A stretch of DNA of 4,480 bases from a virus (taxonomy: Duplodnaviria > Heunggongvirae > Uroviricota > Caudoviricetes): IMG/VR virus record IMGVR_UViG_2713896791_000006. One strand, 5' to 3'. The notes beneath the pieces are model-generated. The model did not search any database, was not told where the DNA came from, and was given only the letters and a program-made list of their open reading frames with translations. This document shows positions 32 through 4,480 of this stretch, in pieces. The translations under genes and the position numbers were made by a program. The stretch's first letter is position 1, and each line of letters starts with the position of its first letter.

Positions 32-250
32 TTAACGCGGGTATGTAATCATTCTGGCAATGGTTAATGCCGCTGCTTTTTCCAGATTGGTGATATCCTG
101 CTCCAGAGAGGACAGATTTTCAGCCTGCTTAGCCCTGACTTCATTAGCCCATTTCAGATCCTGCGCTGCATTAATTTTCTGGTGCATCCACTCATAAAGT
201 TCATCATTGGTATAGTCTGGCGCGATGATGACGGGTTCTCGTTTCTGCAT
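32..250 (-). CDS. Small hypothetical prophage protein (72 aa), distal gene of the leftward early operon
   Basis: ATG at 250-248 on the minus strand, preceded by GAGGA (RC of 257-261) with a 6-nt spacer; stop TAA at 34-32. It sits directly downstream of the 42-aa ORF in the same orientation. No motif I can recognise. Confidence 0.5.
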   Translation of the reverse strand: MQKREPVIIAPDYTNDELYEWMHQKINAAQDLKWANEVRAKQAENLSSLEQDITNLEKAAALTIARMITYPR

Positions 251-279: not shown

Positions 280-408
280 TCAGCCATTAGATTTTGCCGA
301 ACTGGAAAGCACCTGTTTAAATTCGTTGAAGCTGTGAGCTTCTTCGCCTTCGGCAAGGCCTTCGAAGTATTCTTCGTAAGCCTTTTCCATGATTGTGTCG
401 AAATCCAT
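280..408 (-). CDS. Very small acidic protein (42 aa, MDFDTIMEKAYEEYFEGLAEGEEAHSFNEFKQVLSSSAKSNG); absent from the supplied ORF track
   Basis: Own translation of the minus strand: ATG at 408-406, stop TGA at 282-280. An AGGTGG Shine-Dalgarno-like motif (RC of 414-419) lies 5 nt upstream of the ATG. The upstream ORF's stop and this start are arranged TGAtATG (412-406), suggesting translational coupling. The plus-strand ORF 265-462 is its Phe-rich antisense shadow. Confidence 0.4.
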   Translation of the reverse strand: MDFDTIMEKAYEEYFEGLAEGEEAHSFNEFKQVLSSSAKSNG

Positions 409-409
409 A

Positions 410-658
410 TCACCCACCTGAATTTCTTTCCAGCCAGCGACGCGCTCCAGATTCGGTTTTAAACGTTTTGCTTTTGGTATACGTCATTGCGGTGAACGTA
501 CCGTACTGGTTGGGGAACACGCCACATACCAGAGATTCGCTGTTGCCAAGATCGATAGTATCCATGCTGACCTCATTNNNNNNNNNNNNNNNNNNNNNNN
601 NNNNNNNNNNNNNNNNNNNNNNNNNNNCATAGTTATTAAAGTTGAACCCTGCCGTCAT
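410..658 (-). CDS. First gene of the leftward operon, interrupted by the assembly gap; true length and frame continuity unknown
   Basis: ATG at 658-656 (MTAGFNFNNY...) about 94 nt downstream of the predicted leftward promoter, with GAGG 9 nt upstream. The reading frame enters the 50-N gap (578-627); because the gap length is arbitrary, the N-terminal and C-terminal parts are only artificially joined in the ORF track. The C-terminal part ends at TGA 412-410. Confidence 0.4.
   Translation of the reverse strand: MTAGFNFNNYXXXXXXXXXXXXXXXXXNEVSMDTIDLGNSESLVCGVFPNQYGTFTAMTYTKSKTFKTESGARRWLERNSGG
578..627. other. Assembly/scaffold gap (50 N)
   Basis: Run of exactly 50 N; the flanking sequences are not duplicated, so this is probably a true gap of unknown size. 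Confidence 0.95.
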
Positions 659-758
659 GTTCTTACGCCTCGGGCTGGCTACTTAACCCGTGACCACTGC
701 CTGGTAACTCGAGGTATTGCCCTGTATTGTGTGGGACGGGATGGGTTGGTATGGGAAA

Positions 759-787
759 ACTATAGGAAATGCCTAATTACTTGTCAA
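759..787 (-). promoter_or_regulatory. Leftward sigma70-type promoter (PL analogue): TTGACA, 17-nt spacer, TATAGT
   Basis: On the minus strand: -35 TTGACA (RC of 782-787), 17-nt spacer (781-765), -10 TATAGT (RC of 759-764). Predicted transcription start near 752, reading toward the ATG at 658. Confidence 0.5.
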
Positions 788-824
788 TAGGCTATGCCTA
801 ATAATTTGGGCGCAACCTAATAGG
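763..824. promoter_or_regulatory. Operator-like palindromes left of racR (OL analogue)
   Basis: Perfect palindrome TAGGC-TAT-GCCTA at 788-800, abutting the -35 hexamer. Imperfect copy TAGGA-AAT-GCCTA at 763-775 inside the promoter spacer (centres 25 bp apart). A CCTA-A-TAGG element at 816-824. Confidence 0.45.
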
Positions 825-895
825 TGATGGTTTGTGGAAGAGGTAGTAGGAGTTAACTAACGGGAACTAGGAATTTCCCGTCGGACCATATAAGT

Positions 896-1372
896 TTAAG
901 TTCCTGTCTTGGTGATGTTCTGGCTTTTCCGTTTTGATTCTTGATTTTTCAGATAGTTAGCTACCTTCATTTCCATTGCGGCAATGTAGGCGCGAACGTC
1001 ATGATCAACCCAACTAGGCTCCGTAGCATTTCCAGATAAGATGAAAGCCACAATTGCTCTTTTTTCATCAGAGGCGGCTTGATAAAGGCTGTTTATGTCT
1101 AAAAGTTCACTTTTTGTATCTGAAGTGGATGGGGTTGGTATGGGGTATTCGTTAAGCCCCCAATGCTCTGGACCAACCACATCAGAAAAGAAACGCCATA
1201 GTTCTGGAAGTTTGTCTTTACTTATCGAACCTTTCTTAATCCAGTCATGGATTGATGGTGGTTGGACTTTGAAATGACGTGCGATTTCCGCCTTTGATTT
1301 GACGGCTCCTGATGCAATTTTTTTGTTAATGGCCTGCTCTATCGCTCGGCCTAAGTCTTTACCACTAAGCAT
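896..1372 (-). CDS. racR: CI-like helix-turn-helix repressor of a Rac-type prophage (RacR-like, 158 aa)
   Basis: 158-aa ORF with an N-terminal HTH-like segment (KSKAEIARHFKVQPPSIHDWIKKG). ATG at 1372-1370 with AGGAG (RC of 1384-1388) upstream; stop TAA at 898-896. Divergent from a Cro-like gene and followed by ydaT/ydaU/ydaV-like genes, matching the Rac prophage gene order as I recall it; the 158-aa length matches RacR. Confidence 0.8.
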   Translation of the reverse strand: MLSGKDLGRAIEQAINKKIASGAVKSKAEIARHFKVQPPSIHDWIKKGSISKDKLPELWRFFSDVVGPEHWGLNEYPIPTPSTSDTKSELLDINSLYQAASDEKRAIVAFILSGNATEPSWVDHDVRAYIAAMEMKVANYLKNQESKRKSQNITKTGT

Positions 1373-1401
1373 TGCTTAATAGTCTCCTATGCGCATCGCG
1401 T

Positions 1402-1467
1402 TAGGCAATCCCTACTCTCGATGTATTAGGCATAGCCTATTGACAATTTCATTAGGCTAAGCCTAAT
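1402..1467. promoter_or_regulatory. Three operator-like palindromes in the racR-ydaS divergent region (OR analogue)
   Basis: Site 1 TAGGC-AAT-CCCTA at 1402-1414 (one mismatch). Site 2 TAGGC-ATA-GCCTA at 1427-1439 (perfect). Site 3 ATTAGGCT-A-AGCCTAAT at 1451-1467 (perfect 17-bp palindrome). Centres at 1408, 1433 and 1459, i.e. 25-26 bp apart. Sites 2 and 3 flank or overlap the rightward promoter. Confidence 0.5.
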
Positions 1468-1469
1468 AT
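1440..1469 (+). promoter_or_regulatory. Rightward sigma70-type promoter (PR analogue) for the ydaS operon
   Basis: -35 TTGACA at 1440-1445, 18-nt spacer, -10 TAATAT at 1464-1469. GGAG at 1484-1487 then ATG at 1497. Confidence 0.5.
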
Positions 1470-1496: not shown

Positions 1497-1820
1497 ATGA
1501 AAAAAGATAACTATTCATTCAAACGAGCTTGTGCTGTTGTCGGTGGGCAATCAGCAATGGCTAGGCTTTTAGGTGTATCTCCTCCAAGCGTAAATCAATG
1601 GATCAAAGGTGTACGTCAGTTACCTGCTGAGAGATGTCCTGCGATTGAACGAGCAACAAAAGGTGGTGTTCTGTGTGAAGAACTTCGTCCTGATGTTGAT
1701 TGGACATACTTACGACGCTCGTCATGTTATTCGCAGAATATGTCGATGAAGCAACCAAATGACGAAAACGATCATACCCGAAGCATCAAGAGGCAAATGA
1801 TTCATGAAAATCAAACATGA
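1497..1820 (+). CDS. ydaS: Cro-like HTH protein (YdaS-like)
   Basis: ATG at 1497 (MKKDNYSF...) with GGAG 9 nt upstream. HTH-like segment QSAMARLLGVSPPSVNQWIKG. The ORF-track start at 1476 is a GTG extension lying inside the predicted promoter/leader, so I prefer 1497. Position is divergent from the repressor gene. Confidence 0.75.
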   Translation: MKKDNYSFKRACAVVGGQSAMARLLGVSPPSVNQWIKGVRQLPAERCPAIERATKGGVLCEELRPDVDWTYLRRSSCYSQNMSMKQPNDENDHTRSIKRQMIHENQT

Positions 1821-2251: not shown

Positions 2252-3214
2252 ATGAGCAGCAAGCTTCATGGTCTTGTCTGGGAAGGGTGCGCCTTCACCG
2301 GCATGATCTTATCCAGGGTGGCGGTTATGGCCCGTCTTGCAGACTACAGCAATGACGAGGGCGTGTCATGGCCTGCCATTGAAACTATCCGGCGTCAGAT
2401 CGGTGCAAGAAGTGAATCCACAGTGAAATCGGCTATTGCAGAACTGGCGAAAGAGGGCTGGCTGACGAAGGAAGAGCGTAAGGTCGGTGGGCGTAATGTA
2501 AGCAATATCTATCGGCTTAATGTGGAAAAACTCGAAGCAGCTGCGGCGGCGGCGCGTGAGTCATATAAACCGAAAAGAAAAATTAGCCCGGCAAAAAATG
2601 ACCCGTTAACAGTTGACCCGTCAAATATTGACCCCTCAACGGTTGACCCGTCAAATTTTGATGGATCAACTGTTGATAAAAAACTGCCGATTAGGGGGGC
2701 GATGATTGACCCCGATCCGTCAGTATTAAAACCTGATCCGTCAGATAAAAGATCTTCTTGTCCGGACGCTTCGCAACCGGACCCGCAGACGGCTGAACAG
2801 GATTTTTTAACCCGACACCCTGACGCGGTTGTGTTCAGTGCGAAAAAACGCCAGTGGGGAAGTCAGGAAGATTTGGTGTGCGCACAGTGGATCTGGGGAC
2901 GAATCGTGAGTCTTTACGAGCAGGCGGCCAGCGATGATGGCGAGATCACTAGACCGAAAGAACCCAACTGGACAGCATGGGCCAATGACGTTCGCACAAT
3001 GCGGATGCTGGATGGCAGAACTCACAGACAAATTTGTGAAATGTTTGGGCGTCTCCAGCGGGATTCGTTCTGGGTAAAAAACATCATGAGTCCGGCAAAA
3101 CTCCGGGAAAAATGGGATGAACTGGTTATCCGCCTGGGGCGTTCGCCTGCGCAGCGTTGCGTGAATCACATTTCTGAACCGGACACTGAAATACCGCCGG
3201 GATTCAGGGGGTGA
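2252..3214 (+). CDS. ydaU: Replication initiator-like protein (YdaU-like): N-terminal winged-HTH, pentapeptide-repeat linker, DnaT-like C-terminal tail
   Basis: ATG at 2252 preceded by GGGGG (2243-2247); the track start at 2237 is GTG. N-terminal segment RLADYSNDEGVSWPAIETIRRQIGARSESTVKSAIAELAKEGWL resembles a winged-helix DNA-binding domain. The C-terminus ...VNHISEPDTEIPPGFRG closely resembles the C-terminus of E. coli DnaT as I recall it (...VNTVSEPDSQIPPGFRG). Sits immediately upstream of the DnaC-like gene. Confidence 0.8.
   Translation: MSSKLHGLVWEGCAFTGMILSRVAVMARLADYSNDEGVSWPAIETIRRQIGARSESTVKSAIAELAKEGWLTKEERKVGGRNVSNIYRLNVEKLEAAAAAARESYKPKRKISPAKNDPLTVDPSNIDPSTVDPSNFDGSTVDKKLPIRGAMIDPDPSVLKPDPSDKRSSCPDASQPDPQTAEQDFLTRHPDAVVFSAKKRQWGSQEDLVCAQWIWGRIVSLYEQAASDDGEITRPKEPNWTAWANDVRTMRMLDGRTHRQICEMFGRLQRDSFWVKNIMSPAKLREKWDELVIRLGRSPAQRCVNHISEPDTEIPPGFRG
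2598..2687. repeat. Tandem 15-bp iteron-like repeats (core TTGAC-CC-GTCAA) inside ydaU
   Basis: Units at 2598, 2613, 2628, 2643, 2658 and 2673: atgacccgttaacag, ttgacccgtcaaata, ttgacccctcaacgg, ttgacccgtcaaatt, ttgatggatcaactg, ttgataaaaaactgc. Each good unit has the inverted arms TTGAC/GTCAA. They encode pentapeptide repeats VDPSN/IDPST. Confidence 0.55.
2706..2754. repeat. Second repeat pair (GATCCGTCAG followed by A/T-rich tract) with clustered GATC sites
   Basis: GATCCGTCAG at 2714-2723 and 2736-2745, each followed by tattaaaa / ataaaag. GATC at 2664, 2714, 2736 and 2751, i.e. four sites in about 90 bp. Confidence 0.4.
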
Positions 3215-3220
3215 CGTGTC

Positions 3221-3961
3221 ATGAAAAACATTGCGGCAGTTGGGGTTCTTGAACGTATTCGCAGACTTGCACCACAGGGGGCGGTTCCACCGTACCGGAC
3301 GGTGGAGGAGTGGCGGGAATGGCAACTTGCTGAAGGACGAAAACGCAGCGAGGAGATTAACCGCCTGAATCATCAGGTGCGGGTTGAAAAAATCCTGAAC
3401 CGTGCGGGCATCCAGCCGCTTCACAGGAAGTGCTCATTCGGGAACTACCGGGTGCAGAACGACGGTCAGCGCCATGCTCTGAGCCAGGCGAAATCCATTG
3501 CCGATGAATTGATGACCGGATGTACAAACTTCGTGTTCAGCGGTAAACCTGGTACCGGTAAAAATCACCTGGCAGCAGCGATTGGCAATCGGCTGATGGC
3601 GAAGGGGAGAAGCGTGATTATCGTCACCGTGTCCGATGTCATGAGCGTGTTGCATGACGGCTACGACAACGGCCAGTCCGGGGAAAAATTTTTACAGGAG
3701 CTTTGTGGAGTTGACCTTCTGGTCCTTGATGAAATTGGCATGCAGCGGGATACGCGCAACGAGCAGGTCACGCTGAACCAGATAGTCGACCGCAGAACGG
3801 CTTCGATGCGTAGTGTCGGAATGCTGACGAACCTGAATCACGCAGCGATGAGCACACTCCTCGGAGATCGGGTGATGGACCGTATGACCATGAATGGTGG
3901 TCGTTGGGTGAATTTTAACTGGGAGAGCTGGCGGTCAAACGTTGGACGTCAGGGTATGTGA
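3221..3961 (+). CDS. ydaV: DnaC-like AAA+ helicase loader (YdaV-like, 246 aa)
   Basis: ATG at 3221 with AGGGGG (3206-3211) upstream. DnaC-type Walker A FSGKPGTGKNHLAAAIG (DNA 3542-3565 covers GKPGTGKN) and Walker B DLLVLDEIG. Similar along its whole length to E. coli DnaC as I recall it (e.g. CSFxNYRV, MLTNxN, VMDRM, NW[ED]S[WY]RS). Confidence 0.85.
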   Translation: MKNIAAVGVLERIRRLAPQGAVPPYRTVEEWREWQLAEGRKRSEEINRLNHQVRVEKILNRAGIQPLHRKCSFGNYRVQNDGQRHALSQAKSIADELMTGCTNFVFSGKPGTGKNHLAAAIGNRLMAKGRSVIIVTVSDVMSVLHDGYDNGQSGEKFLQELCGVDLLVLDEIGMQRDTRNEQVTLNQIVDRRTASMRSVGMLTNLNHAAMSTLLGDRVMDRMTMNGGRWVNFNWESWRSNVGRQGM

Positions 3962-3985: not shown

Positions 3986-4480
3986 GATGGAAACTGTATT
4001 GCATGCACTGAAAGCGATGGGAAAAGCCAATTCTGTTGAACTGGCGGCGCGGCTTGATATCAGCCGTGAAGAAGTTCTTAACGAACTGTGGGAACTCAAA
4101 AAAAATGGCGTTGTTGATAAAACGGGTCACACCTGGTTTCTGGCTGTCGAAGGTGANNNNNNNNNNNNNNNNNNNNNNNNNNNNNNNNNNNNNNNNNNNN
4201 NNNNNNTCAAAAAAAATGGCGTTGTTGATAAAACGGGTCACACCTGGTTTCTGGCTGTCGAAGGTGAAGCCGGGGTAACCGAAGGGCAGGCACTACAACC
4301 TGAAGCGCCGGATGTGGTAACCGAAGAGGTCGCTCCAAAAGTTACCGCAGACATGATGGTTGAGTTTATCGGTCAGGATGGTGCTAAAACGTGTGAGGAA
4401 CTGGCGGGTAAGTTCGGCGTCAGTACTCGCAAGGTTGCTTCCACGCTGGCGGTGGTAACCGCAACGGGGCGGCTGGCACG
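3986..4480 (+). CDS. Hypothetical protein with two winged-helix-like segments; partial (runs off the window) and interrupted by an artefactual gap
   Basis: ATG at 3986 with GAGGTAAA (3973-3980) upstream: [57 protein letters not shown]... The frame resumes after the gap at 4209 ([28 protein letters not shown]...[35 protein letters not shown]...) and is open to 4480. Could be a YdaW-like gene, but I cannot confirm this. Confidence 0.5.
4096..4267. repeat. 61-bp exact direct duplication (4096-4156 = 4207-4267) across the N gap; probable mis-joined overlapping contig ends
   Basis: Both copies read tcaaaaaaaatggcgttgttgataaaacgggtcacacctggtttctggctgtcgaaggtga. Removing the gap and one copy restores a continuous in-frame ORF. 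Confidence 0.85.
4157..4206. other. Assembly/scaffold gap (50 N) flanked by duplicated contig ends
   Basis: Run of exactly 50 N; the 61 bp before and after are identical. Confidence 0.95.

Follow-up and report, generated by a model that had tools for sequence, protein, structure and literature searches.

Genes flanking racR

The window, i.e., the whole 4,480-nucleotide stretch of viral DNA analyzed here, carries racR between a leftward and a rightward group of genes (Table 1). Its segment from 640 to 1500 matches a prophage of Escherichia coli 2011C-4251 with 100% identity and the Rac prophage of K-12 with ~87% identity, and the encoded RacR protein shares 91% identity with that of K-12. At least 1,086 complete E. 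coli genomes contain the whole 640-1500 segment, as does one induced phage. Two runs of N in the window are scaffold gaps; in the complete genome, 38 bases replace the first, and a 61-bp repeat around the second is present as a single copy.

Pfam matches, with which the annotation agrees, give the right operon the order of a Cro-like gene, a CII analogue, and replication genes, the last comprising a gene for an O-like helix-turn-helix protein that contains iterons (HTH_36/DnaD_N) and then one for a DnaC/IstB-like ATPase. Leftward, beyond the window, the complete genome continues with the DicF RNA (Rfam, 76.7 bits), dicB, an exonuclease, an excisionase, and an integrase, and all genes of this early operon through to the integrase lie on one strand. 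The left operon is therefore of the Qin dicBF type, as opposed to the ydaG-ydaF-kilR type of K-12 Rac, and the gene content on both sides identifies the window as part of a lambdoid prophage that joins RacR immunity to a Qin-type (dicBF) left arm. The predicted leftward leader (566-752) has no significant fold (z = +0.92) and no Rfam match; the Rfam search gave only DicF and a subthreshold STnc100 match further left.

RacR acts like lambda CI yet is outside the CI/LexA family, because it matches no Pfam family at E ≤ 0.01 in a Pfam search, has no S24 peptidase domain, and is reported to have a C-terminal fold different from that of CI (PMC11014345). The same study found RacR to be an octamer in solution, linked the octamer to the four sites in the racR-ydaS intergenic region, and described the RacR regulon, including the ydaFG operon, as uncharacterized (PMC11014345).

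Table 1. Positions of genes, promoters, operators, and other elements in the window
Feature	Position	Strand	Description
ydfC	32-250	-	Third gene in leftward operon
42-aa ORF	280-408	-	Second in leftward operon
DUF1391 protein gene (YdfA/YdaF-like)	410-565	-	First leftward gene, 51 aa; PF07151, E = 4e-26; annotation
Predicted leftward leader	566-752	-	175 nt; C-rich 5' end; scaffold gap 578-627 stands for 38 real bases
PL-like leftward promoter	759-787	-	-35 TTGACA 787-782, 17-nt spacer, -10 TATAGT 764-759; 11/12 consensus; start predicted at ~752
OL1 (putative operator)	763-775		TAGGAAATGCCTA, 1 mismatch; 25 bp from OL2; over spacer and -10 of leftward promoter, centered at ~-17
Left repeat arm	781-803		Operator OL2 and -35 hexamer of leftward promoter
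OL2 (putative operator)	788-800		TAGGCTATGCCTA, 0 mismatches, RacR type; abuts -35; centered at ~-42 of predicted leftward start
Possible weak third left site (doubtful)	807-819		TGGGCGCAACCTA, 2 mismatches; 19 bp from OL2
Small hairpin just past racR stop (uncertain)	863-886	-	8-bp stem, 8-nt loop, -10.9 kcal/mol; z = -1.0, not significant
racR (repressor)	896-1372	-	158 aa; annotated RacR, 100% identity in E. coli 2011C-4251
Fourth right site	1366-1378		TAAGCATTGCTTA, 2 mismatches; racR start codon in spacer; published operator 3 (PMC9638921)
Third right operator	1402-1414		TAGGCAATCCCTA, 1 mismatch; homologue of -35-adjacent site in more distant relatives
Right repeat arm	1424-1446		OR operator and -35 hexamer of ydaS promoter
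Right operator abutting ydaS -35	1427-1439		TAGGCATAGCCTA, perfect; mirror partner of OL2
PR-like ydaS promoter	1440-1469	+	-35 TTGACA 1440-1445, 18-nt spacer, -10 TAATAT 1464-1469; 10/12 consensus
Right operator over spacer and -10 of ydaS promoter	1453-1465		TAGGCTAAGCCTA, perfect; published O1 (PMC9638921)
ydaS-like gene (Cro analogue)	1497-1820	+	First rightward gene; YdaS_toxin PF15943, E = 4e-30; P22_Cro, E = 1e-8
YdaT-family gene (CII analogue)	1804-2229	rightward	Pfam YdaT_toxin and annotation

Operator-promoter units on the two sides of racR

Among the exact inverted repeats of the window, the longest is a 23-nt pair: as the original prediction had claimed, segments 781-803 (TTGTCAATAGGCTATGCCTAATA) and 1424-1446 are exact reverse complements of each other, with 100% complementarity. 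In 200 first-order Markov random sequences the longest inverted repeat measured 10 to 15 nt (mean, 11.3); analytically, ~1e-7 exact inverted pairs of 23 nt would be expected. Palindromes of the form TAGGC-N3-GCCTA with ≤2 mismatches number 8 in the window versus 0.94 expected, a count reached in none of 200 shuffles (0/200), and seven of the eight flank racR.

Each 23-mer contains one TAGGC-N3-GCCTA palindrome that abuts an outward-pointing TTGACA hexamer (787-782 leftward and 1440-1445 rightward), and motif and promoter scans verified these previously claimed coordinates. A consensus scan of positions 600 to 1600 found exactly two promoter-like sites, both facing away from racR, and the leftward start that had been placed near 752 agrees with the start predicted by the promoter scan. 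A second palindrome lies beyond the one in the 23-mer, at 25 bp on the left and 26 bp on the right, and its final TA forms the first two bases of the -10 box (left, CCTATAGT; right, CCTAATAT). Because this second palindrome overlaps the -10 box on each side, both sides represent the same ~45-bp unit (operator, -35 hexamer, and operator/-10 box). Operator centers fall near -42 and -17 at both promoters, relative to predicted starts at ~752 and ~1476. Each 23-mer is thus only half of a two-operator unit, a point absent from the original prediction. Since the palindrome of the 23-mer is centered at about -42, the operator expected to occlude the promoter is its neighbor (763-775 for the leftward promoter and 1453-1465 for the rightward one) and not the one within the 23-mer. 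Two good sites lie to the left of racR, against four sites to its right.

The right half of this arrangement is the published racR-ydaS system of K-12 Rac, with the same consensus, the same hexamers, the same site at the racR start, and the same four inverted repeats. The K-12 ydaS promoter (TTGACA/TAATAT) has been mapped by primer extension and is abolished by mutation of TAATAT (PMC9638921). RacR footprints in K-12 cover the racR-ydaS region, with the ydaS promoter occupied first, at the lowest protein concentration (PMC9638921; PMC5700373), and define an operator consensus, (T/A)TAGGC-n3-GCCTA(T/A), that includes the site over the racR ATG (PMC9638921; PMC5700373). On the left, positions 788-800 (aTAGGCTATGCCTAa) fit this published consensus perfectly, and positions 763-775 are one mismatch off.

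The left unit is also present in K-12 but is not mentioned in three studies (PMC9638921, PMC5700373, and PMC11014345) that treat the racR-ydaS intergenic region only, and a search for RacR motifs by one group covered phi80 only (PMC6715736). Full-text searches and the main papers on RacR, YdaS, and YdaT gave no account of RacR sites or of a promoter downstream of racR, although an early report, from before 2000, is possible. The right half is already known, and the left half is an expected but apparently undescribed element of the Rac switch.

Conservation of the left unit and the mosaic joint

Loci collected with the RacR protein as the query, and hence independently of the operator motif, provided the comparison across genera. 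In five of them (K-12, E. ruysiae, Mixta mediterraneensis, a Pseudomonadota metagenome bin, and Proteus mirabilis; RacR identity, 57 to 91%) the left unit lies ~90 to 130 bp past the racR stop codon and consists of a perfect palindrome, TTGAC, and a second palindrome 25 bp on. The core that is invariant among these five loci reads ATTAGGCA(T/A)AGCCTATTGAC, a short variable spacer, and ATTAGGC...CCTA, and the DNA around it is unalignable outside Escherichia. OL2 is unchanged in K-12, E. ruysiae, the metagenome bin, and Proteus and has one spacer change in Mixta; its 25-bp partner, OL1, was found at every full-length racR locus examined, and alignment shows that the leftward TTGAC and the position of the -10 box are kept across homologues. 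The doubtful third site at 807-819 is alignable only within Escherichia, where the K-12 copy has 3 mismatches. The K-12 left unit (chromosomal positions ~1,419,626-1,419,667) has its pair of operator sites at positions 3631-3668 of the extracted locus (L002) and the -10 box just beyond; the predicted leftward start corresponds to ~1,419,619 on the minus strand of the chromosome. At five further protein-seeded relatives, which are partial or have a divergent C terminus (L009 and L011 to L014), no left pair was found within the 1.5-kb flank.

Perfect 23-bp identity between the two sides is specific to a lineage, and K-12 shows one mismatch. Such lineage specificity would suit a left copy that is a nonfunctional by-product of recombination or gene conversion across racR, as would the appearance of the extra operator unit in the right operator of E. 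coli, which looks copied from OL. We nevertheless regard this origin, together with that of a chance match, as scarcely credible. Chance is excluded by the palindrome counts and the repeat expectation, the left unit is better conserved than the right across genera even though its flanks have diverged beyond alignment, and it coincides with a module boundary.

That boundary is visible in comparisons with other prophages. At positions 640-753, the window shares 90 to 95% identity with thousands of E. coli genomes and with several phages without racR, and homology to prophages with a different repressor stops at ~754, a short way past the left -10 box on its downstream side. One racR-less genome has a different repressor gene attached to the common leader and left operon at the point equivalent to ~754; palindromes of the form TACCCATrGGTA, at 25-bp spacing, lie to the left of that gene, and related ones lie to its right. 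The immunity cassette thus extends from one early promoter to the other, the left and the right, and is swapped as a unit.

Viral contigs were surveyed with the motif TTAGGC-N3-GCCTATTGAC as the seed. A relative of RacR is encoded by 108 of the 120 contigs recovered, and nearly all of these 108 have a 25-bp-spaced pair downstream of the racR relative and three or four sites upstream. Because the motif itself was the seed, this survey shows the position of the motif relative to racR and not its frequency, and the per-position information content of the operator units was discarded as evidence, since the units were selected by motif. The distance from the racR relative to the left pair ranges from ~0.1 to 1.4 kb. 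It reaches 0.75 to 1.4 kb in classes with ~48 to 62% identity and in relatives that share the N-terminal domain alone; the 56% class has an open reading frame of 389 aa with an HSDR_N domain in this gap. The spacing between OL and OR is not conserved, and site coordinates showed no conservation among genera in the helical phasing of OL relative to OR.

Control of the leftward genes and comparison with related systems

In K-12, others have shown that RacR binds and represses the right promoter and that the leftward genes depend on RacR. Expression of ydaF, ydaG, kilR, ydaE, and racC rises 40- to 70-fold when the C protein represses racR (PMC6765115), and in published RNA-seq data depletion of RacR, including by CRISPRi, raises leftward Rac genes 40- to over 100-fold (PMC6765115; bioRxiv 2026.09.06.749655). 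This derepression could be partly indirect, via YdaS, YdaT, or prophage excision.

The leftward genes might lack a promoter of their own and be transcribed by read-through from racR, held off by Rho termination inside racR, with the left palindromes acting as a roadblock or auxiliary element. A Rho-dependent terminator (trac) within racR has indeed been credited with silencing kil (PMC4150792), and racR and the left operon share a strand. The leftward rise, however, cannot be read-through from the racR promoter, because the C protein and CRISPRi both lower racR transcription, and under either treatment the leftward genes go up 40- to over 100-fold. In addition, a promoter matching 11 of 12 consensus positions lies exactly between the left sites, and its -35 and -10 elements are kept across genera. 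We therefore consider read-through unlikely as the source of leftward transcription, although Rho termination and control at a left promoter could coexist.

The best explanation, and in our judgment a highly probable one, is a lambda-like immunity region (OL/PL and OR/PR), in which racR lies between two divergent early promoters built into one type of ~45-bp unit and in which RacR is predicted to bind on the left as well as on the right. Several features support the lambda-like layout that was originally proposed, at the level of sequence: the paired outward promoters, the operators shared between them, and the order of genes on both sides. The anatomy and its conservation are observed; RacR binding at the left sites, a start near 752, cooperativity, and any looping between OL and OR are inferred. 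RacR dimers at the promoter-proximal sites (763-775 and 1453-1465) would occlude RNA polymerase, and the neighboring sites at 788-800 and 1427-1439 would probably provide cooperative binding. RacR would thereby silence the rightward operon of ydaS (cro), ydaT (cII), and replication genes and likewise the leftward operon of DUF1391, ydfC, dicF, dicB, exonuclease, xis, and int, and both promoters would fire when RacR falls. YdaS, which is reported to compete with RacR for its operators (PMC11014345), would be expected to act at the left sites too. Among the observations that count against the lambda-like reading are the one mismatch that the promoter-proximal left operator carries in the window and the five protein-seeded relatives in which no left pair was found within the 1.5-kb flank.

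The left sites could also be genuine RacR sites whose main role is that of a distal anchor for looping to OR, tightening repression of ydaS and autoregulation of racR, with the embedded promoter of minor importance. The octameric state of RacR in solution (PMC11014345), the use that lambda CI makes of OL, and the position of the perfect left site at -42, off the core promoter, are all consistent with such a role. An anchor alone would not need the conserved TTGAC hexamer, however, and in every homologue the second site lies over the -10 box; the distance between racR and the left pair varies (~0.1 to 1.4 kb), and loss of RacR derepresses the leftward genes. A primary role as an anchor is thus very unlikely, but looping as such is compatible with the lambda-like immunity region and not exclusive of it.

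The likeness to lambda extends beyond the position of the repressor gene between divergent early promoters. One operator consensus serves both sides, with multiple sites ~24 to 26 bp apart; the left operon holds recombination, excision, and integration genes, and the right operon holds a Cro analogue, a CII analogue, and replication genes; the repressor is octameric; and some RacR relatives have a slot for cargo between the repressor gene and PL, as lambda has for rexAB. The differences lie mainly in the repressor and its sites. Unlike CI, RacR has no S24 peptidase domain and has a C-terminal fold reported to be unrelated; its operators are 13-bp TAGGC-N3-GCCTA palindromes, with two good sites on the left and four on the right compared to three and three in lambda; its upstream operator abuts the -35 hexamer, whereas that of lambda overlaps it; and OL and OR are ~640 bp apart, compared to 2.3 to 2.4 kb in lambda. 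Neither N nor a nut antitermination element was seen.

Two other prophages offer parallels for the left side. The dicA-dicC region of Qin precedes the same kind of left operon (DUF1391/ydfA-like, ydfC, DicF RNA, and dicB), and its PL-like promoter, dicBp, is repressed through the adjacent DicA, with operators on both sides of dicA, an arrangement that has experimental support. The repressor and operators of the window are of the RacR type rather than the DicA type, and in the window the leader and operon meet a different immunity cassette at a mosaic joint near 754. In CP-933P, the non-CI octameric repressor PaaR2 has YdaS- and YdaT-type partners, the -35 and -10 elements and the operator repeats of PL are identical to those of PR, and the cargo paaA2-parE2 sits between the repressor gene and PL (PMC8630535). 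Its operator repeats are GTTTAGTAA and its repressor belongs to another family (PMC8630535). The left promoter of CP-933P, PL933P, has been cloned upstream of gfp and assayed (PMC8630535), whereas the RacR left promoter is predicted from its sequence.

If RacR controls it as predicted, the left unit would supply the half of the Rac genetic switch that has been missing and would give the RacR octamer a second DNA partner. A defined RacR-controlled left promoter would account directly for the joint induction of kilR, recET, ralR, xis, and int with ydaST upon loss of RacR, and it would provide a specific 45-bp element to mutate in studies of Rac excision, of the classical rac/sbcA activation of RecET, and of KilR or DicB toxicity. 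The RacR cassette, from left to right promoter, moves as one module, which can attach to different left arms and accommodate cargo in the interval from racR to the left promoter. The general view of lambdoid regulation is unchanged by this, and the left unit is useful rather than surprising.

The right operator differs between Escherichia and more distant relatives. The latter have three right-operator sites, of which the -35-adjacent one reads TAGGCAATTCCTA-TTGAC. In Escherichia, the equivalent right site has lost TTGAC, and the interval from it to the promoter contains a 25-bp unit that matches the left -42 operator/-35 unit exactly, which brings the number of sites to four. Covariation of left and right flanking bases within lineages, as an indicator of gene conversion, followed a pattern that was inconsistent across loci. 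The perfect 23-bp mirror may record the copying of the left unit into the right operator. A wider proposal, tentative and in our view possible rather than probable, is that an octamer of RacR bridges the two left sites and a pair of the right ones in a ~640-bp loop, forming a CI-like switch with an unrelated oligomerization domain, and that the four-site OR of Escherichia Rac arose by copying from the left -42 operator/-35 unit, which would explain the 23-bp mirror.

A scan for intrinsic terminators found no terminator-like site after racR; the small hairpin just past the racR stop codon (863-886) is possibly a weak racR terminator. The sequence of its stem differs between the window and K-12, and the pairing is kept in both.

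The leftward operon and its leader

The operon that follows the left promoter (787-759, minus strand), as traced in L001, a compared locus that extends to the left of the window, includes the DicF sRNA and dicB. As judged from this gene order, the two cell division inhibitors DicF and DicB would be under the control of RacR, rather than DicA, in this strain.

The leader of the leftward transcript (640-753) occurs with 90 to 95% identity in >2,000 E. coli genomes and several phages, all of which lack racR, and this homology stops at ∼754, immediately downstream of the −10 box of the left promoter. Strain F2_407_2_2 has the matching leader fused to another repressor, flanked on either side by palindromes of its own (TACCCATrGGTA). 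The 5′ end of the leader is C rich and folding of the whole leader gave no significant structure, features that would make it rut-like. An exact 13-bp direct repeat, GGGTTGGTATGGG, is present at 743-755 (the predicted leftward start and mosaic joint) and at 1132-1144 (within racR); its sequence is not preserved in the K-12 locus, and the repeat is probably due to chance.

Operators and sequences around racR

On the right-hand side, as compared between 1402-1446 of the window and L007 to L013, there are four operator sites in Escherichia RacR loci and three in distant relatives. The extra 25-bp unit of the Escherichia loci matches the left −42 operator/−35 unit exactly, and this sequence identity suggests copying from left to right. 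Further to the right, the sequence ATGATTCATGAAAATCAA at 1797-1814, covering the end of ydaS and the start codon of ydaT, is identical to the YdaT-box of K-12, an activating site for a PRE-like, reverse promoter of racR (PMC11879457).

In L016 and other viral contigs, whose RacR has ∼56% identity, a 389-amino-acid open reading frame (ORF) separates racR from the left operator-promoter unit. The equivalent slot in lambda is occupied by rexAB, and by this analogy the ORF may be defense cargo that is cotranscribed with the repressor gene. In the window, racR is followed by a small hairpin, the stem of which differs in sequence between the window and K-12 but retains pairing in both. The hairpin lacks a T-run and was not significant against shuffled sequences (z = −1.0), and it is therefore a weak terminator at best.

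Features of the window and compared loci
Feature	Coordinates	Strand	Remarks
N run 1	578-627		Scaffold gap; 38 real bases there in the complete genome (E. coli 2011C-4251)
N run 2	4157-4206		Scaffold gap, flanked by 61-bp direct repeat
Small hairpin	863-886	−	Directly past the racR stop codon
DicF sRNA	L001 5011-5062	−	Rfam RF00039, 76.7 bits; left of window
389-aa ORF	L016 5535-6704	−	Type I restriction HsdR N-terminal (nuclease-like) domain

Repeats in the right part of the window

A repeat search of the window found a perfect 61-bp direct repeat (4096-4156 and 4207-4267) bracketing the second N run. The sequence is present as a single copy in the complete genome, and the repeat was therefore rejected as a biological feature and attributed to overlapping contig ends. 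The search for direct and inverted families also found at least four copies of a partly palindromic, TTGACCCGTCAAAT-like repeat, recurring with a period of 15 bp, at 2593-2674, within the O-like gene (2252-3214). These look like origin iterons embedded in the gene for the replication initiator, the arrangement seen in lambda O.
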